64,000 nt of DNA, taken from assembly GCA_963921275.4 (NCBI GenBank), contig OZ001293.3, positions 2,240,001 to 2,304,000 of the forward strand, in the 5' to 3' direction. The position numbers were made by a program, and so were the translations under genes. The notes below the pieces were generated by a model. That model saw nothing but the letters and a program-made list of their open reading frames with translations, did not search any database and was not told the DNA's origin. This DNA is from an uncultured Hormoscilla sp. Lineage in GTDB: Bacteria > Cyanobacteriota > Cyanobacteriia > Cyanobacteriales > Desertifilaceae. Below, piece by piece: positions 247 through 63,240 of this stretch (within the stretch, counting starts at the first letter, position 1; each line of letters begins with the position of its first letter).

Positions 247-320
247 GGTCGGGGTCGAGCTGGGAATCGCTTCCCAACCGGACCTTTCGGAACCATGGGT
301 GCGACTTTCACCGCACCAGG
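247..320 (-). ncRNA. Group II intron 3' remnant (domains V-VI only)
   Basis: Minus strand reads CCTGGTGCGGTGAAAGTCGCACCCATGGTTCCG...CTCGACCCCGACC. It is cut off at the edge of the 321-879 duplication. Confidence 0.85.
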
Positions 321-2650: not shown

Positions 2651-3178
2651 ATGCCAACAACAGCTTTATTTGTGCTAGCAGCTAAGTGGGTAGGAATTGC
2701 TACTGCCGTCTGTGCTGTCGTGACAGTCCTCAGCTGGGTGCTAAAATGGGGCATCAGGTTCAGACTGGTGGGCGTTACTAGCTTTATGGTGATTTTGACC
2801 GCTGGTTTGTTTACCTTGAGTATAGCGGCAGTTCCCCTGATAAAAATACCAGGTGCGGTGCCCTTTACGGTGGTGTACGATAATGGCTCAGCCCAAACGG
2901 CGATCGCAGTGCCACCGGAGATTACGGAACCCCAACTGGAAGCTACCCTCCGTCAAGCAGCTTACGATCTGTTTTCGCCAGGACGCGGTAGCAGTACAAG
3001 TACCCAGCTGACGATCAGGGCCCGGACGATAATTCATCCAGAGGAAAATGTCTCGCAACCACTGTACCTGGGTTATGTCAAGCGATCGCTTAGAGATCGG
3101 GAAGACGATAATATGGAGATATTCATAGACTCGGAAAAATTAGCCTCCTTGCCAGGATTGCCGAATTCCGCAGAGTGA
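2651..3178 (+). CDS. ycf51: Ycf51-family (DUF2518) protein
   Basis: WGIRFRLVGVTSF, VVYDNG, LEATLRQAA motifs. Confidence 0.85.
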   Translation: MPTTALFVLAAKWVGIATAVCAVVTVLSWVLKWGIRFRLVGVTSFMVILTAGLFTLSIAAVPLIKIPGAVPFTVVYDNGSAQTAIAVPPEITEPQLEATLRQAAYDLFSPGRGSSTSTQLTIRARTIIHPEENVSQPLYLGYVKRSLRDREDDNMEIFIDSEKLASLPGLPNSAE

Positions 3179-3208
3179 CTGGGGATAAGGTACGGGCGAT
3201 TAAGCCTG

Positions 3209-4384
3209 ATGACGGAAGGAAAAAATACCACGATTATGTCTGAGGAAGCTTTATTACCTAAATTAGCAGCGGCAACAGCCAATAAGCCCTTAATATATAT
3301 GAGCGTTGCCCCAGTCAGGGTGATGCGGGGGGAAAACTGTCTGTCCCAAGCAGGAGAGGCGATCGCCCGTTTGGGTTCTCGTCCCCTGATCGTAGGGGGC
3401 GATCGGACTCTAGAGGTAGTGCGACCCCCCTTGCAACCAGTCCTGGAAGAACAGCAACTAACTGCTGAGTCGGCGGACTACTCTCCTGATTGTAGTGAAG
3501 CAACATTAGAGTCCCTGAAGCAAGCTGTGAGTAGCCATGCAGCGGATCTGATTATTGGCGTCGGCGGCGGGAAGGCCCTGGATGCGGCCAAATTGGTGGG
3601 TCACTATTGTCAACTGCCAGTGGTAACTATTCCGACATCAGGGGCAACCTGTGCTGCCTGGTCAGCCCTTTCTAATGTATATTCTCAGGAAGGTGCCTTT
3701 CTCTACGATGTCAGTCTCGCCCACTGTCCGGAGTTGCTAGTGCTAGATTACAATCTGATTGCGACAGCTTCACAGCGGACTCTGGTGGCAGGCATAGGAG
3801 ATGCGATCGCCAAATGGTATGAAGCATCTGTCAGTAGCGGTCACTCCCAGGAAACCACGATTATTGCTGCTGTCCAACAGGCGAGGATCCTGCGAGATAT
3901 TTTATTTCAAAAGTCAGCAGAGGCCCTCAAAGAACCAGGAGGAGAAACTTGGCGGCAAGTGGTAGATGCTACAGTACTGCTAGCAGGGGCGATCGGGGGA
4001 CTGGGAGGTGCCCAATGTCGCACGGTAGCGGCCCATGCGGTCCACAATGGCTTAACCCATATCCGGGGGGCCCCTCATATTTTACATGGAGAAAAAGTCG
4101 CCTATGGTATTCTAGTGCAGCTGCGCTTGGAAGAGATGGTACAGGGAAACAAACTGGCAGCTACGGCGAGACAACAGCTGTTACAGTTTTACACAGAGAT
4201 TGGTCTTTATAAAACCTTGGATGACTTGGGACTGGGGAACGTCACCCTGGCAGAGTTGCGTAAAGCAGCGGACATTGCCTGTTCCCCTAATTCTGACATT
4301 CACCGACTCCCTTTCCAGGTGGGGCCCGACCAACTGATGGCAGCAATGGTTTCGACTTCCACTCCTACTCAGTATAGCCTATAG
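3209..4384 (+). CDS. Iron-containing alcohol/glycerol dehydrogenase family
   Basis: GVGGGKALD, IPTS, GIGDA, AHAVHNG, HGEKVAYG motifs. Confidence 0.9.
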   Translation: MTEGKNTTIMSEEALLPKLAAATANKPLIYMSVAPVRVMRGENCLSQAGEAIARLGSRPLIVGGDRTLEVVRPPLQPVLEEQQLTAESADYSPDCSEATLESLKQAVSSHAADLIIGVGGGKALDAAKLVGHYCQLPVVTIPTSGATCAAWSALSNVYSQEGAFLYDVSLAHCPELLVLDYNLIATASQRTLVAGIGDAIAKWYEASVSSGHSQETTIIAAVQQARILRDILFQKSAEALKEPGGETWRQVVDATVLLAGAIGGLGGAQCRTVAAHAVHNGLTHIRGAPHILHGEKVAYGILVQLRLEEMVQGNKLAATARQQLLQFYTEIGLYKTLDDLGLGNVTLAELRKAADIACSPNSDIHRLPFQVGPDQLMAAMVSTSTPTQYSL

Positions 4385-4801
4385 CTATGATGATGGATAC
4401 AAATCCAGCACCAAATCTAAGGGGATGATGCCGATCCGTTTGAGTAGTGCAGCATCAAGCACAAATCCTCCTTGACCATTTTCTGAGGAAAAGCCACAAA
4501 ATATTTCTATGTCGCATACCGACATTAGTTCTTTGAATCGCTCAACCTTTGACTCAATCAACAACAATAATTTGCTAATATGTAACTTGAGCGGTTCCGA
4601 TTCATCTAGGCCGCTTTCGAGAATCCACGATGACTCTTGCCTAATTTTACCGCTGGGGTTACGGGGATTGACAGGTGTTCCGATCGCGTAGGCACAAGTT
4701 GGTTCTATTCCCAGAGTTTTAGTAATTACTGCTGGAGTTATAGTCTTGCTAACGATCCGCAGAGATGCAGAATTCCATTTTTGGTCTATTTTGGGGTCCA
4801 T
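4385..4801 (-). CDS. DUF4279-like putative immunity protein
   Basis: ITKTLGIEPT, SSWILES and C-terminal LDLY pattern. AT-rich. Confidence 0.7.
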   Translation of the reverse strand: MDPKIDQKWNSASLRIVSKTITPAVITKTLGIEPTCAYAIGTPVNPRNPSGKIRQESSWILESGLDESEPLKLHISKLLLLIESKVERFKELMSVCDIEIFCGFSSENGQGGFVLDAALLKRIGIIPLDLVLDLYPSS

Positions 4802-4812
4802 TATTTACAAAT

Positions 4813-5100
4813 TTAGAGTAAGTAGTCAAAGATATTTCCAATCGAGTCGCCAACTCCTCCACCCTCCATTTTAGGATAAACTTCACCTGTCTCAGAATCT
4901 ACCATAACGTCTGGATTCCGTCTAGATCCACTTCTCGGTAAACCATCCCTTTTTAATTTATGAATCGCCTTGCGGATTTCTGTGACAGGTAGATTTAGTT
5001 GGTTTGCTAGCTGACTGAGATTTTTTGTTAGCCTTTCGGGATCGGGTATATTGCTGGAGCCGTTGTTAGAGCCAAAAGTGATATGAATCCTCTTTTTCCT
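4813..5100 (-). pseudogene. Start-less polymorphic-toxin tip (Ntox33-like)
   Basis: Open frame ...EIRKAIHKLKR...NPDVMVDSETGEVYPK..GGVGDSIGNIFDYLL* directly upstream of the DUF4279-like gene, with no ATG. Confidence 0.5.
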
Positions 5101-5280
5101 TTGCGTCGTACTGGTGATTTTCTCTTGATGACTTCGCTTTTGAGGATCTCTCTACCTCCTCGCGATGAGCTTTCCCAGAAACAGATCCTCCCGTGGTACT
5201 GGAGGCTCTGCCTCTGGTAGACGTTCCCAGGTTCTACCTGGGAACGAGATGCAGGGGGGCCCCGTCCGACTCAACTTTTC

Positions 5281-5715
5281 TTAGGACATGGACGTTAAAA
5301 TGTCCTGGGCGTGGGTTGCAGTTTGCACTTTGTCGATGACTTGGGAAATTTTGCCTTCACTGTCGATAATGTAAGTGACGCGCTTGGCGTAGCCGCCACC
5401 ATCGACATCGTAAGCCTTAGTAATTGCACCGTCGGTATCGGCCAGCAATTGGAACGGCAGGCCGTATTTCTCGGTAAACTGCTTGTGAGATGCTTCGTCG
5501 TCCGTGCTGACTCCCAAAACGACCATATCCTTGTTCTGGTACTCGGCATAACTATCTCGGAAGCTTTGGGCTTCCTTGGTGCAGCCGGGAGTGTTGTCTT
5601 TGGGGTAAAAGTATAGCACAACGGTTTTGCCCGCGAAGTCGGACAGCTTGACGGTGTTGCCGTTGGTGTCCTTTATGGTGAAGTCGGGCGCGACTGTACC
5701 TACTGTCAGGCTCAT
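5281..5715 (-). CDS. bcp: Peroxiredoxin Q / BCP
   Basis: YFYPKDNTPGCTKEA motif. Confidence 0.92.
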   Translation of the reverse strand: MSLTVGTVAPDFTIKDTNGNTVKLSDFAGKTVVLYFYPKDNTPGCTKEAQSFRDSYAEYQNKDMVVLGVSTDDEASHKQFTEKYGLPFQLLADTDGAITKAYDVDGGGYAKRVTYIIDSEGKISQVIDKVQTATHAQDILTSMS

Positions 5716-5807
5716 GGAATAATGCTCCTTATTAATTTTCTTCTAGCATGATATCATTATCGGAATATCAGCAATTATTCCATCTATAATAAATCTTCAC
5801 AAATAAT

Positions 5808-7082
5808 TCATAAAGCTTCGCCTCTATCGGGGATTATATGATTGAGGGCATCGACAAGCATATGCAGATGAGTGGCTTCATGAGTCGCCATAACTGAGAT
5901 GCGAATGCGACTGGTACTGACGGTAGGCGGGCGGATGGCTGGGGCAAAAATCCCCGCAGCTTTCAGTTTCTCTCCCACTCTCAAAGCTTGGGCTGCACTC
6001 TCCAGGTGCAAGCAGAGTATGCTAGACTCAGAAGGCAAAAGTTTCAGATGGGGCAGCTGTTGAGATATTAGCTGTTTCAGGTAAGTGACATTTTGCCAGA
6101 GTTGAGTGCGCCGTCGCGGTTCCCGTTGGCAGATCCCGATCGCCTGGAACGCGGCAGCAGTATCTGCAGGAGTCAGAGCCGTGGTATAGATCCAGCTAGG
6201 GGCGCGATTTCTGAGAAAATCGATCAGCCTTTCACTGCCAGCGACATACCCGCCCAAACTGGCCAACGCTTTGGACAGTGTGCCAACTTGTATTAGTTCC
6301 CGCCCCGATGTGCTCTGCGCAGTGCGAATATGATGTCCCCCGGGTTTCTCCGTGGGTCCGGGGGACATCAAGCGCGCATCGCACATCGGACTCAGCCCAA
6401 AATGTTCCACGCAACCAGCACCGGTAGCACCCAATACTCCCGTGGCGTGGGCTTCATCTATCAGCAGCATACAGCTAAACTCTTCTGCTAAGTCTAGCAG
6501 CTCGGGCAAAGGACATAAGTCCCCATCCATGCTAAAGACGCTGTCGGTGACGATCAAACAGCGGCGGTAAAACAGTCGGTGCTGATGCAGCTTAGCTTTG
6601 AGCTCCTCCAGGTTACAGTGGGCGTAGTCAAGCACCCTCGCACCGCTGAGTATTGCTCCATTTTTGAGACTAGAATGATTGTACTGGTCAGAAAGAATCA
6701 AATCGCGCTGGCCCACCACAGCGGCGATCGCCCCCAGGTTGGCCAGATACCCTGAACTAAATACTATCCCATCTGCTGTTTGCTTTAAAGAGGCGATCGC
6801 CCTTTCCAAGTCTCGGTGCAACTGTCGATGTCCGCTTAGCAGTCGCGAACCCGTACTACCCGTTCCCCATTTAGAGGTAGCATTAACAGCAGCTTGAATC
6901 AGGCGTGAGTCTCCTGCTAGTCCCAAATAATCATTACTAGCAAAATTGAGCGCCGACTTTCCTGCCAACTGTATCACTGGACCGGGCCGACTGTCAATCG
7001 TCACCACCGATCGATACCAGTTAGCGCGGTGAATGGTTTCCAGGGATTTTTCCAGCCATCCATAAGGATCCGTTGACAGCAT
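5808..7082 (-). CDS. bioF: 8-amino-7-oxononanoate synthase with an in-frame 28-aa repeat-derived insert
   Basis: [35 protein letters not shown] motifs. Confidence 0.92.
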
Positions 7083-16899: not shown

Positions 16900-17568
16900 A
16901 TGAATTATCTTAACTTAGAGGAACTGGCAAACCAGTTAGAAAGCAAAAATTCTCGCGATCGCCTGCTAGCATTAGTGGCCCTGCGGGAGGTACCAGCGGA
17001 ACAAGCCGTGCCTTTAATCAAAAAGGTATTGTACGACGAAATCCTGCCCGTGCGATCGATGGCAATTTTCGCCCTGGGAGTCAAACCCACATCGGAATGC
17101 TTTCCCATCCTAGTACAGTTGCTAGAAACAGATTCAGACTACGGCATTCGTGCTGATGCTGCGGGTGCTTTAGGCTACTTAGAAGATGCCAGAGCCTTAG
17201 AACCCTTAGTGCGGGCATTATATGAAGACACCAGTTGGTTAGTGCGCTTCAGTGCCGCAGTTTCCCTAGGTAATCTCAAGGATAGCAGAGCCCGTGAAGT
17301 TTTAATCCAGGCTCTCGATAGCACGGAAGTAGTGCTCCAACAAGCCGCGATCGCCGCTTTAGGTGAAATAGGCGACATAGAATCAGTCGATCTGCTGCTA
17401 GAATTTGCTGGATCTGAAGATTGGTTACTGCGGCAAAGATTAGCTGAAGCCCTCGGCAACCTGCCCATTTCCAAGAGCATTTCTGCCCTCAAATACCTGC
17501 AAAAAGATAGCAATATTCCCGTGGCTCAAGCAGCAGCATTTTCTCTCCAGCGCCTGTCGGAGTCGTAG
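16900..17568 (+). CDS. nblB: HEAT-repeat phycobilisome degradation protein (NblB-like)
   Basis: RSMAIFALG, DYGIRADAAGALGYL, WLVRFSAAVSLG motifs. Confidence 0.8.
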   Translation: MNYLNLEELANQLESKNSRDRLLALVALREVPAEQAVPLIKKVLYDEILPVRSMAIFALGVKPTSECFPILVQLLETDSDYGIRADAAGALGYLEDARALEPLVRALYEDTSWLVRFSAAVSLGNLKDSRAREVLIQALDSTEVVLQQAAIAALGEIGDIESVDLLLEFAGSEDWLLRQRLAEALGNLPISKSISALKYLQKDSNIPVAQAAAFSLQRLSES

Positions 17569-23964: not shown

Positions 23965-25001
23965 TATTTTATACTCCTGATGATGTATATTATTACTTGG
24001 GTAGTATAGGATATTCTTGATAAATTGTAAAGTTTTGTGATGTGAGCTGACAACATCTACAGCTGGCTGCGGTTCGCCCGTGGTTATACGGCCGTCAGCT
24101 TAAATCACCAATTAATATCATGTCGGGTTGAATGCACCTGATTAAGCGGCCTTGATTTTTGGCCACCAATGATATAAGGTCAACCCCTCAATTAACTCTT
24201 GCTGTTGGAGTAATTGGCGACATCGCTCAACCGGTGTCTTCCACCTCATCAATGCTATTAAACGCTTTGTTGGCTAAAGGTTCATCGATTAATGGCCATA
24301 ACCGCTCAGCTGGTTGCAACTCTGGTGAATAGGGGGGCAGGGGGAACAGGTGAATCCCTTCAGGCACCTGGAGCTTTTCCGTCATATGCTAGCTAGCCTG
24401 GTGGAGAGGGAGAATTACCCGTTTATCTTTGCCAACTTGGAAATGATAGGCAAAGTCTTCGAGCACCGCAGCGAATAGCTGGCTATTCACCTCGGGAAGA
24501 AGCCACCAGTATCTCCTGTTTGGGGTTGGACAAAACCGTACAACCACAACCATTCCCGTTTCCAGTTGACCTTGGCAATCGGCACTGAGAGTGCTTCTAC
24601 CCAGACAGGGCGAGTCACTGGCTGCAATCCGATGGGATGTTCATCTTCTGCCCAAATCTCGACGGTAGCTTCGGAATTGACTGTTGAATCCGTTCCACCT
24701 CTACGAGCAGTTTTTTTTGCCATTCAGACTGAACTTCCTCTACCGCCTCAATATGCTCAGGACGCGGCACTCTTAAACGAAACCCCATCGGCTTAAGATC
24801 TACCCACCCTTGTTGCCAGCTAATACAGATACCAAAGGCATCCCTCAAGTAGTCACAGACAGAGGCGCCCATTCCAAAGACCTCCATCGGGGGCGAGCCC
24901 ACAGCAATTGGGCCTGTTGTATATCATCGAGTTTCGAGTGCGATTCGTTCTAGCCTAACGTGGTCAAACACGGAACGCTGGTCTAGGAAACTAGAAACTC
25001 T

Positions 25002-25872
25002 GGATGGGGTCGAGCCGGGAATCGCTTCCCGACCCTCCCTTGAGGAACCGGACTTGCGATTTTCACCGCATCCGGCTACTGGGTACTAGGCCCTTTTCAT
25101 AGGTAGACTTAATAGGAATTACTTCCGTTAGCCCTTGCCGCCTATCTTTTCTTCCCTTTCCTGGTTTAGCGAGTGGTTGTTCTGATAACCGTTAGTATCA
25201 CCATTTTCAAGTCAGTTTTACCAGTTATCCATACCTTATCCTCCACTTGCGTTTCGGATTAGTTCCGTGGCTTTTTAGGATTACTCATTCCAGCAGCTTC
25301 CTAGTATCACCGACCCACGTCAGCGCTGGCTACCCAGCATCATCTACATTACTGTAGATGTTATCCCAGGAATTACCCCGGGCATTCGCTTCTTGGGCCA
25401 TCCCTCCCCCCGTGGCTTGCGCTTAACATCTAACTTGTCCTGATGGACAGCACACGAGAGGTTACTTCGTTCCCTAACAACATTTCGCGATACCTTTAGG
25501 TCCACACTATACCCCGGGAGCTATTTGAGTACTATATTAGCCAGAGTCTAAAACTAATACTAGCTACCATTTCCTTTTTAGGCCAGCGCATATAGCCTTA
25601 TTTCGCTGGTTCCTTATAACGAGGCTTGCACATGTTTGCCTGCTCTAACCTTGGATATCTTTCCTAGCGGCGTCACCGGCTTAGGCTGCCAGTTATCCTA
25701 CATTTGAGTCCTCGCTTAGCACCACGATGATGTCGCTTCGTAGCACCGAGGACCGGTGTCACCCCCGTACCTGGGGGGAGGGGAATTTAACCCCCATGCG
25801 GTCAGAGTTCCCGGCTAATGAAACCGGGCTAGCGTTCCGTGTTTGACCACGTTAGGCTAGAACGAATCGCAC
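25002..25872 (-). ncRNA. ORF-less group II intron B (antisense within intron A)
   Basis: GTGCG...DV/DVI. Nearly identical to 45937-46806. Confidence 0.93.
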
Positions 25873-25896
25873 AGTACTCATGAGGGTTAGATTCCC

Positions 25897-26653
25897 GTGC
25901 GATGAGTTCCAGCCTAACGTAGTCATATACGGAACGCTGGCCTAGGAAACTAGGAACTCTGGTAATCATGGGGGTTTAATTCCCCCTCCCCAGGTACAGG
26001 GGTAACACCGGTTGGAGGCGCTGCGAAATAACATCGTCGTGGTGCTAAGCGAGGACTCAAATGTAGGATAGCTGGCAGCCCAAGCCAGTGAGGACGCTAG
26101 GAAAGATGTCCATGGCTAGAACAAGCGAACCTATGTAAACCTCGTTAAACCCAACCAGCGAAATAAGGCTTAATGCGCTGGAACAAAAGTTAATGCAGTT
26201 AGTGTTAATTAGGGAATTGGCTAACATTGTACCCAAATAACTGCCGGGGAAAAGTAGGGGCCTAAAGGCATCGTGAAATGATACCAGGGAACGAAGTAAC
26301 CCTTCGTGTGCTGTCCTAAAGGACCAGTCAGATGTGAAGCGCAAGCCGCGAGTGGGAAAGATGGCCTAAGAAGCAAATGCCCGGAGTAATGCCTGGGATA
26401 TGCAGACGTAGGTCGGTGATAGTTGGAAGTCTTGGGTAAAAGTAGCCCTAAATATGCCTACAGCTCGGGGGAAACCTGTCAGAGATGGATAAGCTCAAGG
26501 GGCCAAATCTCATGAGACGAGGGACAACGGGAGTAATCCCGAAGTTACCTACCAGTGACAAGGACCAACTACCCAGTAGCCGTGTGCGGTGAAAGTCGCA
26601 TGCACGGTTCCGAACGGGAGGGTTGTCCCGCGAGGGACAGCTCGACCCCTAAT
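25897..26653 (+). ncRNA. ORF-less group II intron C (sense within intron A)
   Basis: GTGCGATGAG start, DV at about 26577-26610, end ACCCCTAAT. Confidence 0.93.
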
Positions 26654-27637
26654 TCTCCCCAGGCACGGGGGTAACACCGGTTGGAGGTGCTGCGGAGTAA
26701 CATCGCCGTGGTGCTAAGCGAGAACTTAAATGTAGGATAGCTGATAGCCTAAATCGGCGACGCCGCGCTTGTTAGATGTCCAAGGTCAGAATAAGCGAAT
26801 TCATGAAATGATACTAGGGAACGAAGTAACCTCTCATGAGCTGTCCTCATTTGGACAAGTTAGATGTAAAACGGAAGCCATGAGGGGAGAGATGGCCCAA
26901 GAAGCAAAAGCCTGGGGTAATTCCTATGGATACGCTGACGTGGGTCGGTGATAGATAGAGTCTTTGGGTGAAAGTAACCTTAATGTTTTAGATCAGGAGA
27001 AATCCTAGATAATGAATGTTGGACTAAAGACCTGACCGGGTAAAACTTGGAGAACCTAGTAAATTAGGTAAATGTTAGTAAAGAGCGGTTAAAATGGGTT
27101 GGTACTGTTATCCCCCGCGAACCTTCCGGAGTTAGGCATATATGTAGTCTGAGACTAACCATAAGGGGTGAAATTGCATGAAGAAAGGGACAAAGGGAGT
27201 AATTCTGAGTAATTATACTTAGGACAAAGGCTATCTACCCAGTAGCCGTGTGCGGTGAAAGTCGCTCTTCAGGTTCCGAAAGGGAGGGTTGGGAGGTGAC
27301 TCCTAGCTCGACCCCAACTCTGCTTTCCCCAGCATTGTGACGCCGTAAATCTCCCAACGCAGCTACAAGAAATGCGGTTGTAACTACGAACCAGCTCGTA
27401 AATCCAATCCCGACTGTAGCCCGTCACCGCTGCTACTTCCTCTCGGGGTCGGCCTTGGGCTAATAACCAGATGATTTGATAATGTGAGCGCTCAATCGGA
27501 TGAGAAGTCTGACGGTAGCGTTGTTCCAATTCCTCAACTGTGAGATGGGAGAAAATACTGATGCGTTTGGGCATTACCAGTGTACCAGGAGGGGACTATT
27601 CTATATTAGGTGCATTCAACCCGACATGATATAACAA

Positions 27638-38972: not shown

Positions 38973-39009
38973 TTTCCCGTGCGAGGCAGGAAATTTAGTT
39001 TACAAGTAA

Positions 39010-39130
39010 CAGCTAGGTATTCTGGCTGAGGATTTTTCCTTTACAGTTACCGCATAGCCCCTGACTTACACCGGTGTTTCCCTAGTCTGCCACAATTTGC
39101 GGGTGCTTTGATATCTTAGCCCATTCTGCT
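39010..39130 (-). promoter_or_regulatory. Cobalamin riboswitch-like element
   Basis: Minus strand reads AGGGAAACACCGGTGTAAGTC...AACTGTAA...AGCCAGAATACCT directly upstream of the cbiX remnant. Confidence 0.7.
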
Positions 39131-41643: not shown

Positions 41644-41923
41644 CAGTATTTATAGTCGCTTTCAAGCAGTTCTAGACCGACAGCCTCAAACAAATTTTCC
41701 AGTTTACTGCGGTAAATCGGTTTCTTGCATTTCAATATTTTCGAGACTGTATCTTTCGAGACTGTATTGGGAGCTAAAGGGTCTGCACCGGTTCCTCCTG
41801 TGAGTGCTGATATATTTTCATAGGTGCGCTTCTTTCCTTCCTGCTTTAGCTTTTGGTTGATTGCCTTATTCAGTGTCCTGACTCAGTGAGTATAAGACGG
41901 CGTGGGGTGGGGAGCTTGTTCAT
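41644..41923 (-). pseudogene. Small HTH-like domain remnant
   Basis: TYENISALTG..TVSK[15-bp duplication]ILKC...LFEAVGLEL..SDY, frameshifted start. Confidence 0.4.
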
Positions 41924-42029
41924 CGATTGACGCGAGGTGAGCGAACTTCTGCTTTTCCCATATTATGACCGATTTTCAAGCATTTTTTCCCGATTTTCGG
42001 AAATTCGCCAATTTCGAGGTAAAGATTCT

Positions 42030-43681
42030 CGGGGGGTTTTCCGTGTCCGTTCTTGCCCGTATGATATTTGCCTACCTCATATTGCCTTACATTGAACCCC
42101 AGAAAGTCAAATCCCGGGTTATCACTGTGTAGCGTATGGGTTATCTTTGTCTTTTCCGGCTTGAGTTCTAACCCCATTTCTTTCAGCCATTCTGCTATGA
42201 CCCTCTGCCCTTGCTCGATCATGTCGCGGTCCTTGTGCAGAACTACAAAGTCATCGGCGTATCTAACTACTGTCAGTTCCTGCCTTTTCACCTTGTTATT
42301 TCTTGCTAGGGACTTGACCCTTTCTTCTATTCCATGTAAGGCCACATTTGCCAGCAGAGGCGATATGACTCCACCCTGTGGGGTCCCTTCTATGGTTTCA
42401 AACATCTGTCCTGCATCTATCACACCGGCTTTAACCAGGCGCGTATCTGTCTAGGAAAGGTAGGTGAGGTATTTAATTTTGTGAGCAGCGCTTGGTGGTC
42501 AATCTTATCAAAGCATTTAGCAATGTCTGCATCTAAAACCCATTTGGATTTTTTGTTGATGCTGTTGTATATTGCTTCAATTGCATCATGGCACCCTCTA
42601 CCTGGCCTAAAGCCGTAGGAATTTGCTTCAAAATACGCTTCCCATTCGGGATAAGTGCGCAAGTTTTACTAATCCCTGTAGTGCTCTGTCATACATCACT
42701 GGTATTCCTAATGGACGTTTTTCATCCCTTCCTGGCTTCGGTATCCACACTCGTCGTGCAGGCTGAGTAGAGGTTGAGATTGTTAGTTGTCCTACCAATT
42801 TCAGACGCTGCGCTGGGGTCAGGGATTTTACACCATCCACACCGGCAGTCTTCTTGCCTTGGTTTTTTTGCGTTACCCGTCGTACTGCTAAACACTTGGC
42901 TGACCAGGATTTTACCAGTAACCTCCTTTGCTTGCGAACTGTCCGCTTATCACCACGTTGTGCCGCTCTGTAAATTCTCAGAAGCAGCTTAAAGACCCTT
43001 CGCTCTAGCTTGCGCCAGGGGATTGTCTTCCATTCATATTCATGATGACGATGTTTGCAAAGGACCCTGTTCATAACGTTTGTACTGCTACTTACAAATT
43101 CACAATTGACATTACCATGAGGGCGTCAGCATATCCTATCCATTATAGATAGGCATTTGCTTTTCCACTCAATCCTTCCCAGTCATGACCTGCTATCATG
43201 TAAGCTCTTGTTGCGCCTTTGGTGGCTACTCTATCTATCGACCAAGATACGAGAGTACATAACCGGGTTACTTCGTTCCTACAGATGATTGGTTGTAGCT
43301 AAGGATGGATTCCTTACGCCGGGTTTGTTGTCGGTGCTTATTGGTCGGAACATTATCCGCCAACGACCTATATCCTTTCCCTTTTGGGCCAGTGTGTCAG
43401 CCTTATTACACTGGTTCGCTCTGACGACGTTGCAAATCTTTGTTTTATGCTCATCATGGCTACTTCCTCGACGATAACCGATTTGGGCTACCAGTCAGTG
43501 CGCCTTTCATTCCCGCTTTACGGATTGATGCCATCGCTACCGTCGGGAATGTGCTGTCACTCCTGCACCTGGAGGGATGGACTTTCACCATCATCATCTG
43601 TAAGTTGTCTAGGCTAATGAAACCTAGCTAGTGGTCCCCCATATGACTCGTGTCATGTTTTTTACACGAAAAGAATCGCAC
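42030..43681 (-). mobile_element. ltrA: RT-encoding group II intron E, frameshifted and 3'-truncated
   Basis: GTGCG at 43681. ORF from 43074 with TAGVDG, RPLGIP, YGFRPGR, PQGGVISPLLAN, YADD, FLGF. Predicted EBS1 AATGTT is complementary to the flanking AACATT. Confidence 0.92.
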
Positions 43682-45097: not shown

Positions 45098-48000
45098 TAG
45101 AGTCCAAAGTTTGATAATTTTGTCCCGACTGGCTGAAACTAAGGTTTTACCATCCGGGCTGAAGGTGACGCTACTTACCCAATCACTATGTCCCATCAAG
45201 GTGTTCAGCAACTTACCCTGAAGACTCCAGAGTTTGACCGTGTTGTCCCCACTCCCAGAGGCGATCGTCTCCCCGTCGGGGCTAAAGGCCACAGAGAAAA
45301 CGCTATCATCATGACCTCTGAAGGTGTCGAGCAATTTTCCCGACCGACTCCAAAGTTTCACCGTTTTATCCAAACTAGCTGAGGCAATGCGATCGCCTTG
45401 GGGACTCCATTTTACACTGGTGACCTGATCGCCGTGATCCTTTAAGGTGTTCAGCAATTCGCCGTTGCGTCGCCAGACCTTGATTGTCTTATCCGCACTT
45501 CCCGAGACCAGATACTGCCCGTCGGGACTCCAACTGATACTGGTCACGGGTCCGGCATGTCCTTCTAGGGTTGTCAATAGCTTACCGTCCCGCCGCCAGA
45601 TCTTAACCGTGCCATCCCGACTGGCCGTGGCTATCAGCCGACCATTGGGGCTGAAACTGACAGACAAGACTTCCTCTTTATGCCCCTCTAGCATGATGAA
45701 AGGCTGTAGTTTTTTCTGTTCTTGCAGCAAACTCGATCGCCGCCAGATTTTGACAGTCCCGTCCCAGCTTGCCGAGGCTATCAGTCTGCCATCGGGGCTG
45801 AAACTGACGCTAGTGACCCGATCGCCATGTCCGGACAGGATTTTAATCAATTCACCGTCAGTCCCCCAGAGTTTAATCGTATTATCTGCACTGGCTTAGG
45901 CAATCAGCAGATCGTCTGAACTCCAGCTGACACTATGGATGGGGTCGAGCCGGGAATCGCTTCCCGACCCTCCCTTAAGGAACCGGACTTGCGATTTTCA
46001 CCGCATCCGGCTACTGGGTACTAGGCCCTTTTCATAGGTAGACTTAATAGGAATTACTTCCGTTAGCCCTTGCCGCCTGTCTTTTCTTCCCTTTCCTGGT
46101 TTAGCGAGTGGTTGTTCTGATAACCGTTAGTATCACCATTTTCAAGTCAGTTTTACCAGTTATCCATACCTTATCCTCCACTTGCGTTTCGGATTAGTTC
46201 CGTGGCTTTTTAGGATTACTCATTCCAGCAGCTTCCTAGTATCACCGACCACGTCAGCGCTGGCTACCCAGCATCATCTACATTACTGTAGATGTTATCC
46301 CAGGAATTACCCCGGGCATTCGCTTCTTGGGCCATCCCTCCCCCCGTGGCTTGCGCTTAACATCTAACTTGTCCTGATGGACAGCACACGAGAGGTTACT
46401 TCGTTCCCTAACAACATTTCGCGATACCTTTAGGTCCACACTATACCCCGGGAGCTATTTGAGTACTATATTAGCCAGAGTCTAAAACTAATACTAGCTA
46501 CCATTTCCTTTTTAGGCCAGCGCATATAGCCTTATTTCGCTGGTTCCTTATAACGAGGCTTGCACATGTTTGCCTGCTCTAACCTTGGATATCTTTCCTA
46601 GCGGCGTCACCGGCTTAGGCTGCCAGTTATCCTACATTTGAGTCCTCGCTTAGCACCACGATGATGTCGCTTCGTAGCACCGAGGACCGGTGTCACCCCC
46701 GTACCTGGGGGGAGGGGAATTTAACCCCCATGCGGTCAGAGTTCCCGGCTAATGAAACCGGGCTAGCGTTCCGTGTTTGACCACGTTAGGCTAGAACGAA
46801 TCGCACAAACTCCATGAGTATGACCCTGCAAACGGTTGCGCTCTTTGATTTTATATACCGCCTCTTGGAGAGCCGTCTGCACCCGGTCCTTTGTCTGAAC
46901 ATCTGCCCAGTTGCTGGCATCCAGTTTCTTGGCAGCCCGTATCCCTTTTTGCAATGCATCCAGCTGTTTATGGGAGGCGAACAATGCTTATGAGGATGCA
47001 CTCACTGCTTTAATTTCGTTGATTACCGCTTGTCTGAATTGAGATACGGCTTGAAATGTTGAGCCCGCTAAGGTCAATATTACTACCACTGAACCAGCTA
47101 GGGCTAGGCGAAGAAAATTCTGGCGCTGCTTGTCACTTTGCCTGTGCTTTTGCTTCGCGTCTGCCAGGGCGGCCAGTAACTCTTTTTCTTGGCGCAGTTG
47201 TTCCAGCCGAACATAGCTGAGTTCTTCCCGCTTTCGCGCTGCTGACAATTCTGCTAATGACCCATTTTTATCGTTCTCTTTACTCTGGGAAATATATGTT
47301 TCTAGGTCTTCTTGCAGGATTTTATAGCGTTCGTCTGCCAGTTCCGCTAACATCGCTATTTCCTGACGCATTTTTTCTATATACTGATGATTTTCTGCTT
47401 CTTTTTGCCTCAACTCATCCCGTTCTTTCTTTAAGACAACGTCTTCTTGCTGTTGGATAAATTTCCCTAAATAATCATGAACTAGCTGATAGCGCGGGGC
47501 TGCCAATTCCGGAATTAAAGATACTAAACCCGAGCCAACTAAAATATCTAAGATTAAATTGAGTTGCTCCGTATTTGCCAAGTCTGCTGCTAACTCCGCC
47601 CGACTTTTCAGGGGACGATTACCATTTTCATCAGTCAGCAAATACAATACTCGTCTCGCCAGGGGTTGATTTTCTGTGCCGCAGTCCTTGACTAGCTGTT
47701 CTAAAAATCGCTCCACCAGTCTTTGCTTCGGTCCCGATCGCCGATACATGGCCAGAGTGGTAATGTTCTCTGCTTGCAGTTGATATCCCACTACCTGTAA
47801 CTCTATGGGGCGGACTTCTCTCCTTTCTCCTGCTAAGTCCTCGACTAATTCCTTAATCAGAGAGTCTTCTAATTCAAAGTTAGCTTTCTTAGTTAAGCTT
47901 TCGATCACTTCATAGGCATCCTGTGGCGATAAATTACCCAAAGGGTATCTATTGTTTTTATCTAGCAAGTTGCAGTTAATTTCCTCTAAGTCCATCTGCC

Positions 48001-53309: not shown

Positions 53310-53858
53310 GTGCGATTCGTTCAGTGTAAACCACCGGTGAACCAATCGAGGGACACCGGTGGGGGACCACTGGCAGGGTATCATTAGCCCTGATAACTTC
53401 TAGACGATGGTGGTGAAAGCCCACCCCTCCAAGTGCAGGAGTGACAGCACTTACCCCACGGTAGCGATGGCATCAATCCGTGAAGCGGGAATGAAAAGCG
53501 CTCTAACTGATAGACTCCAGAGGTTACTGGTAAGCTCCCGGGCTGCCAAATGTCTAGCGGTACGACGGGTAACGCTAGACAACCAGGGAAAGAAAACCGC
53601 CGGTGTGGATGGTGTAAAATCACTGACCCCAGAGCAAAGACTAGAACTGGTAGGACAAATTGAAATCTCAAATAAGGCTAGGCCTACACGTCGTGTATGG
53701 ATTCCTAAGCCAGGGAGAAATGAAAAGCGGCCATTAGGAATACCCACGATGCACGACCGCGCGACTCAAGGGCTCCTTAAGATTGCGCTCGAACCCGAAT
53801 GGGAAGCGTATATGGAAGGGAACTCATACGGATTCAGACCGGGTCGGGGATGCCACGG
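53310..53858 (+). mobile_element. Deleted RT-encoding group II intron F
   Basis: GTGCG start homologous to intron E. About 200 nt of DI is fused directly to an RT N-terminal fragment (TAGVDG, RPLGIP, YGFRPGRGCH). Confidence 0.88.
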
Positions 53859-54130
53859 CACACAGGAGACATCGAGGAAAAGTTGCTTATCCGATGTACT
53901 CTGCGCGCTTGATGTCCCCCGGATGCACGGCGAAACCCGGGGGACATCATAATCGCACTACGCAGAGCACATCGGAGAGTAATCAGGTAGGGGAGTCATG
54001 TCGATATTCTCAAAAATGTGGTATATTTTGGGTTACTCTTCCATTTGTCTATTGACTTTGTCACAGACTCAGTTCATAATCAAAAGTTGAACTCGTGGTT
54101 TTTGTTTATTTTGAGTAGAGGAGAATAAAA

Positions 54131-61397: not shown

Positions 61398-63240
<1,843 letters not shown>

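Follow-up and report, generated by a model that had tools for sequence, protein, structure and literature searches.

Intron C is an ORF-less group II intron inserted in sense within a related intron, A, at a hairpin of domain I that is conserved in its family, and the two guide sequences of C match this hairpin. We consider it probable that C, a IIB2-like intron, reached this position by a guide-directed route and that its lineage forms twintrons. The evidence comes from the window, by which we mean the whole 64-kb stretch of DNA analysed here, and from related introns fetched from other genomes. The source of the window is a filamentous-type cyanobacterium; its gene content includes gas-vesicle, WD40/STAND and polyphosphate kinase genes, and its G+C content is 48%.

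Intron C and its relatives in the window

Using Rfam searches, a BLAST search of C against the window and inspection of the sequence itself, we identified related ORF-less group II introns nested in the window. Four matches to domain V/VI scored above the Rfam gathering score, namely those of intron C (26575-26653, + strand; RF00029), intron B1 (25004-25080, - strand), intron B2 (45939-46015, - strand) and intron D (62794-62871, + strand). When the Rfam models of domains I-IV were included, the only matches in the window at E<=1 were to the domain V/VI family and, weakly, to plastid D5 models. Intron C (25897-26653, + strand) aligns with B and D over its full length. Intron B1 (25004-25872, - strand) lies antisense within A and is identical to B2 (45939-46806, - strand) at 866 of 868 positions, and intron D occupies 62038-62871 on the + strand. 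A third B-type intron, B3 (1-93, - strand), starts at position 93 and has its 5' end alone in the window; its exon, ending in ...CCATATAGAGTGT, agrees with the guides of B. B3 is the sixth intron with the target hairpin described below and was missing from the list in the earlier note.

The host intron A extends from 24938 to 27318 on the + strand and is split into three segments by B1 and C. Its 5' segment (24938-25003, +) shares 87.9% identity with C positions 1-66 in the BLAST alignment, its middle segment with the target hairpin (25873-25896, +) was recognized from the sequence and the alignment, and its 3' segment (26654-27318, +) follows C directly. The segments of A on either side of C align with C and D and become continuous after removal of C, as in a twintron. 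Excision of 25897-26653 restores a hairpin of A, GAGGG-TTAGATT-CCCTC, that is collinear with D.

Intron C is 757 nt long. It begins with GTGCG at 25897 and ends in ...CCCCTAAT, with the terminal ...GACCCCTAAT at 26653, so that the GUGYG 5' end and the AY 3' end are both present. Its domain V/VI match scores 43.9 bits against a gathering score of 40, and the bulged A of domain VI presumably lies 8 nt from the 3' end, as judged from our reading of the helix. All six domains of C align with those of B and D, domains III and IV being shorter in C. At the 147 columns of domain I that are invariant in the other 12 sequences, C deviates at eight, within the family range of 0-11. Since domain V/VI is above the threshold, the six domains can be aligned and the deviation in domain I is within the family range, C looks like an intact and apparently functional ribozyme. 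The claim that C is ORF-less was borne out, and no ORF across the A|C junction exceeds 48 codons between stops.

The features listed for the IIB2 subgroup in one report (PMC4649490) include a 5' consensus, GUGCGAUUC, and a stem-less EBS2. B and D begin with GTGCGATTC and C with GTGCGATGA. Two hairpins are present at about nucleotides 13-58 of C, between a basal GUUCC/GGAAC pairing, which we read by eye from the sequence, and the next long-range helix, as in IIB2-type introns, and the EBS2 of C has no stem of its own but is unpaired between two helices. The two hairpins and the unpaired EBS2 suggest that the cyanobacterial family to which C belongs is IIB2-like. The 64-kb window contains one copy of C. 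In a plasmid collection, eight records matched C, all covering at most 7% of its length.

Guide sequences of intron C

Relatives were fetched by scanning genome contigs with an 18-mer that is invariant between the EBS2 and EBS1 regions. The scan matched at least 70 loci, mostly cyanobacterial, comprising the broad family and chance matches. Among the matches listed, 58 loci had a recognizable 5' end at the expected distance, which together with four window introns gave 62, and 18 of these 62 carried CCTCGT before EBS2 and were taken as the close family. The closest relatives among the matches listed were in Hormoscilla MAGs. We derived an RNAalifold consensus from the domain I sequences of 13 of the 18 close-family members, leaving out B1 as a near-duplicate of B2, locus L021 as equal to L013, and L026, L030 and L060, in which domain I is disrupted. 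The consensus has 85 pairs, 36 of them with compensatory changes.

In the consensus, EBS1 of C, GGGAAT(T) (26212-26218, +), occupies the terminal loop of a hairpin (alignment columns 364-370), the stem of which (pairs 355-360/374-379) shows compensatory changes on both sides, and it pairs with exon positions -1 to -7. EBS2, (T)AAACCC (26146-26152, +), is unpaired between the CCUCG and CCAGCG helices; UUAAACCCAA is single-stranded between CCUCG...CGGGG and CCAGCG...CGCUGG. Both hexamers are unique in C, GGGAAT at 26212-26217 and AAACCC at 26147-26152, the context of EBS2 being CGTTAAACCC and the EBS1 loop TAGGGAATTGG. AACCC of C pairs with GGGTT at -13 to -9, a register shared with L007, L014, L018 and D.

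Guide-exon pairing was then scored over 14 positions in a register in which EBS1 pairs with exon positions -1 to -7 and EBS2 with -7 to -13; L026 and L030, which have an interrupted EBS1 region, were dropped. Cognate guides and exons of 16 family introns paired at a mean of 10.7 of the 14 positions (range 7-13), against a mean of 5.9 (sd 2.0, maximum 10, n=236) for non-cognate combinations. The 12 introns of other genomes, which had not been used in choosing the register, averaged 10.25/14, and C itself scored 13/14. When the EBS1 arm of C was folded as a single sequence, four weak pairs (U-G, U-G, A-U, G-U) closed across the loop, and the arm was no more stable than its shuffles (z = -0.77). 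As far as sequence comparison can establish it, GGGAAT and AAACCC are confirmed as the real EBS1 and EBS2 of C. The earlier note, which had assigned the guides by eye and had proposed a fold of domain I as a check, gave coordinates and sequences that were all correct, and its assignment is upheld by the consensus fold of 13 sequences, with GGGAAU in the terminal loop and EBS2 unpaired, and by the register test on 16 introns.

Two further segments of domain I co-vary. GGTACA (25993-25998, +) forms the loop of the hairpin adjoining the target hairpin, and TGTACC (26228-26233, +) lies in an internal loop 3' of the EBS1 hairpin. The pair reads GGTACA/TGTACC in C, AGTGTG/CGCACT in D, AATACG/CGTATT in L007 and L014, and GGTACG/CGTATC in L018; in B, five of the six positions pair. 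We take this pair to be alpha-alpha', in the arrangement expected of IIB introns. TGTACCC of C had been suspected as a rival EBS1, since the exon of B1, ...GAGTACT, is complementary to the homologous AGTACTC of B. It was rejected because its covariation with the loop of the 25990-26002 hairpin identifies it as alpha', and because B2, B3, D and the Hormoscilla introns pair with their exons via the terminal loop. The EBS1 loop of the Hormoscilla intron L018 is ATTCCC, the same letters as IBS1 of C; it pairs with its own exon, GGGAGT, and we take the likeness as a coincidence of sequence.

The target site in a conserved domain I hairpin

The IBS2-IBS1 sequence of C, GGGTTAGATTCCC (25884-25896, +), consists of the loop and the 3' strand of the domain I hairpin of A and abuts the GTGCG of C. 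Twelve of its 13 positions pair with the guides of C, 11 by Watson-Crick pairs and one by a G-U pair at -7, and there is an A-A mismatch at -8. The target 13-mer takes in the 7-nt loop of a hairpin with a 5-bp stem (GGGGG-TTNRATT-CCCCC) and most of the 3' strand of that stem. The first long-range helix of domain I encloses this hairpin, and the alpha hairpin follows directly on its 3' side. The stem of the target hairpin (pairs 89-93/101-105) is conserved and shows compensatory changes at pair 90/104 (UA 6, GU 3, GC 2, AU 1, CG 1); in both subfamilies the loop has T at position 1, a purine at position 4 and A at position 5. We presume that this is a likeness to a tRNA-type T-loop.

C carries the same hairpin, GGGGG-TTTAATT-CCCCC (25970-25986, +), which is unoccupied. 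Its 13-mer, GGGTTTAATTCCC at 25972-25984, complements the guides of C at 13/13 positions and is the sole such match in the window. The sites of the three B copies match at 12/13 positions, and A and D share an identical 13-mer, the D site being equal to the occupied A site from -13 to +4. The first base after the site (+1) is a T in A and D; in the B introns and in C's own hairpin it is a C. At position -8, intron C has T, introns A, B, D and L007 have A, and L018 and L030 have C. The occupied A site, with its mismatch at -8 and G-U pair at -7, is not the best match to the guides of C. That the guides fit only C's own hairpin at -8 is weak evidence, since it concerns a single variable position and the chance of such a fit is about 1 in 3 or 4.

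The window contains six occurrences of the motif GGGTTNNATTCCC, where 0.05 would be expected, and 0 of 100 shuffles reached this number. All six sites are in hairpins of family introns (A, C, B1, B2, D and B3), so that within the window the site is restricted to introns. A's alone is occupied; the other five are empty, including those of B1 (25781-25793), B2 (46715-46727), D (62116-62128, identical to the occupied one) and B3 (2-14). With up to two mismatches to the ideal target of C, eight matches were found in the window, against 2.03 expected; six are the intron hairpins and the remaining two, at 17076 and 48248, are outside introns. A matched site had been reported in C, A, B and D, and our search bears this out for six sites, each in a family intron.

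These data have to be weighed against the view that the insertion into A was a single event, the usual home of C being a non-intron GGGTT..ATTCCC sequence in a gene or in the T-arm of a tRNA. The hairpin of A would then be a look-alike, and the family-wide match would follow from the conservation of the hairpin itself. The single copy of C, the imperfect match at the occupied site, the five empty sibling sites and the two near-matches outside introns would all fit this view, as would the fact that other family introns occupy ordinary genes, a WD40 gene for B2 and an oxidoreductase gene for D. It does not account as readily for the hairpin of C being the only 13/13 match in the window, nor for six of the eight matches with up to two mismatches being intron hairpins, and we regard it as unlikely. 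A tRNA T-arm is a candidate for the alternative natural target; no tRNA genes were found in the window.

Host intron A and the sibling introns

The alignment gap blocks show that A is without the stretch equal to C positions 235-374, which contains EBS2, EBS1 and alpha'. Domain V of A (27240-27318) gave no match to RF00029 even at E<=1, and B1 lies antisense in A, 24 nt from C. Since the EBS region is missing, domain V is decayed and the intron is split by antisense B1, A is dead. B1, being antisense, cannot be spliced from A's own transcript, and the degenerate state of A makes splicing of the outer intron unlikely. A itself lies antisense in the decayed remains of an IS630-type transposase gene, pieces of which (HTH_23 and HTH_33, - strand) flank it on both sides. 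The present arrangement is thus simply a mobile element nested in debris: the IS630 remnant, then A, then B1 and C.

The exon flanks of B1 are at 24990-25003 and 25873-25896. This exon fits EBS2 of the B guides at 6/7 positions and EBS1 at 4/7, compared with EBS1 scores of 7/7 for B2 and 6/7 for B3, read by eye. With its poor EBS1 fit and its near-identity to B2, B1 looks either like a recent off-target insertion or like a case in which the exon changed later. B2 lies in sense within a WD40 repeat of a STAND-WD40 gene (45640-47110, - strand), but the joined exons of this gene shift frame and run into a stop. A Gfo/Idh/MocA oxidoreductase gene (61740-63170), in which D lies antisense, likewise has a frame change and a stop. 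The host genes of B2 and D both look like pseudogenes.

The earlier note had offered a second interpretation, in which C suppresses its siblings. As a suppressor, C would be a selected brake on their spread or a hyperparasite; it would split domain I, and the siblings would depend on its excision. The position of C would suit such a role, since the site is inside domain I and adjoins alpha, an unspliced 757-nt insert should block folding of the host intron, and inner introns often must splice first, as stated in a review (PMC4424553). However, the sole invaded intron is A, and the loss of its EBS region, the decay of its domain V and its interruption by antisense B1 have left it non-functional, independently of C; B1 and B2, apparently recent, and D are uninvaded; and there is no sign of selection at the host level. 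Nothing is suppressed at A now, as A was or has become dead. We found no support for suppression and consider it highly unlikely. The interpretation given in the earlier note is partly supported: what stands is an ORF-less intron with real guides that match an occupied, family-conserved hairpin, also present in C. That the hexamers are no functional guides and that C reached A in some other way, for example by recombination, is hardly credible, even with an EBS1 arm no more stable than its shuffles, given that both hexamers are exactly in the family EBS registers, that 12 of 13 positions pair and that the junction is precise, with the hairpin of A restored on removal of C.

Nested introns in other genomes

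Two of the fetched loci, L060 and L033, likewise contain an inner intron whose guides match the site that it occupies. L060, from a Hormoscilla MAG, has a three-level nest (2726-5833): the middle intron, inside the outer one, begins at 3144, and the innermost intron, nearly identical to the middle one, begins at 3256. The innermost intron occupies a site in domain I of the middle intron. Its EBS2 pairing (CAGGA/TCCTG) is at -13 to -9 and its EBS1 pairing (CGAGTTA/TAACTTG) has one G-U pair, in the same register as in C. The guides of this innermost intron fit a site in domain I of introns like itself, whereas those of the middle intron mismatch their own flank. In the L033 twintron (2729-4677), the inner intron at 3456 lies in domain IV of its host, with the EBS1 pairing CATGCAT/GTGCATG, and the homologous stretch of L050, 94% identical, is empty. 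In L030, an intron starts inside the EBS1 hairpin of another intron, at a locus cut by the contig end.

Among the 70 matches listed, neither a C-type copy nor the EBS2 context of C was found, and the junction ATTCCCGTGCG gave one match, in L007, which is ordinary coding sequence with no intron boundary. The same hairpin is present in L007, L018 and L030, none of the three being invaded among the matches listed. In L026, the equivalent domain I hairpin has 18 nt inserted in its loop, and more foreign sequence follows the 18-mer motif.

Proposed route of insertion and comparison with known twintrons

On the reading that we favour, insertion of C by its guides into the family hairpin, retrohoming would be the likely route. 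C RNA would be excised as a lariat with the helper protein of a related intron elsewhere in the genome, its EBS2 (AACCC) and EBS1 (GGGAAUU) would recognize GGGTT..(G)ATTCCC in DNA, and C would reverse-splice after ATTCCC and then be copied into DNA by a reverse transcriptase supplied in trans. This pathway follows the mechanism known for mobile group II introns (PMC2882425). The window itself contains no intact reverse transcriptase gene, only fragments, and the helper enzyme is presumably encoded elsewhere in the genome. The fragments are at 41923-43074 (- strand) and 53407-53949 (+ strand) and share 52-76% protein identity with the proteins of related ORF-containing introns in the fetched loci. 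Decayed pieces of ORF-containing introns of the wider family, with RVT_N and RVT_1 fragments, are at 42314-43585 (- strand) and 53416-53855 (+ strand). Because the hairpin is in every close family member, any sibling and any further copy of C would offer the C lineage a target, so that fresh targets would come with every such intron. Insertion would cut domain I of the host, and a live host would probably need prior excision of C, in line with the order of splicing noted above for nested introns.

The C lineage may habitually live in introns. A single insertion, with five of the six sites in the window empty, is too little to establish that C is specialized on the sibling site. The proposal that the site acts as a self-renewing safe harbour is plausible, and the same reading is already in print for the nested introns of Methanosarcina and the F3 introns of Thermosynechococcus described below. 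It is very doubtful, if conceivable, that the C lineage goes further and is a hyperparasite, with a sibling's reverse transcriptase, the domain I hairpin as its sole home, and the splicing and spread of the host made dependent on C; the internal target might then be a cis decoy that tunes splicing, or might permit chains of C in C.

Introns homing into related introns have already been published, and C adds a case of known behaviour. The F3 introns of Thermosynechococcus elongatus (TeI3a-e, TeI3i) are seven identical ORF-less copies, six of them at one conserved intron site (Mohr et al. 2010, PMC2882425); five copies are in F1 introns, one is in TeI3h and one is intergenic. They are mobilized by a sibling's protein, and insertion into other mobile introns is listed in that paper as proliferation into harmless DNA. 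Like F3, C is ORF-less and cyanobacterial, has guides that match a conserved site inside related introns and forms a twintron. Unlike F3, which has seven copies, C has one in the window; the F3 site is in tolerant domain IV, between two start codons of the protein gene, whereas that of C is a core hairpin of domain I; and a perfect copy of the target is present in C itself, a further difference from F3 as described there.

The nests of Methanosarcina acetivorans are attributed to repeated site-specific homing into other group II introns, which thus offer a "perpetual homing site" (PMC4424553), the same idea as the safe harbour of the earlier note. According to the same account these nests are archaeal and have up to five introns, in contrast to the single nesting of C in domain I. 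The Tery_4732 twintron of Trichodesmium has its inner intron in domain I of a IIB2 host, with sequential splicing established by experiment (Pfreundt & Hess 2015, PMC4649490). It resembles the C/A pair in being cyanobacterial and in the position of the inner intron in domain I of an IIB2 host, but both of its introns have protein genes and a B1-like inner intron lies in a B2 host. It is a single conserved locus in a host gene and has no family-wide target, whereas the target of C is family-wide. For Phlegmariurus mitochondria, Zumkeller et al. (2020, PMC7049729) describe an intron, cox1i1149g2, that is inserted in domain IV of a copy of itself and also in domain I of a different intron. It differs from C in belonging to a plant organelle, in its self-insertion into domain IV, in that its insertions are termed "ectopic" and in that some inner copies no longer splice.

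What distinguishes C in detail is the location of its target in the ribozyme core and the perfect copy of its own target. In a literature search with most subscription journals outside its reach, no description of a family-conserved domain I hairpin as a homing site was found, nor anything on introns of Hormoscilla. Intron targets in Methanosarcina acetivorans reportedly lie in intron ORFs, to judge by the title of a 2003 paper by Dai and Zimmerly. C thus adds a bacterial case of a protein-less group II intron aimed at a core structural hairpin of its relatives, where published bacterial and archaeal homing into related introns is to tolerant domain IV or a protein gene. If more copies confirm the habit, C would provide a natural system for intron competition and parasitism within one genome, and for the tolerance of twintrons in essential ribozyme domains; at present it neatly illustrates how mobile elements insert into one another's remnants.

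Other features of the window

A domain V/VI remnant at about 248-320 (- strand), below the Rfam reporting limit, is isolated; it has no upstream intron sequence, which is the pattern expected of an incomplete, 5'-truncated retro-insertion. An AdoCbl-II riboswitch match at 39007-39092 (- strand) was weak (E = 0.006), its score of 30 bits falling below the gathering score of 36.5.
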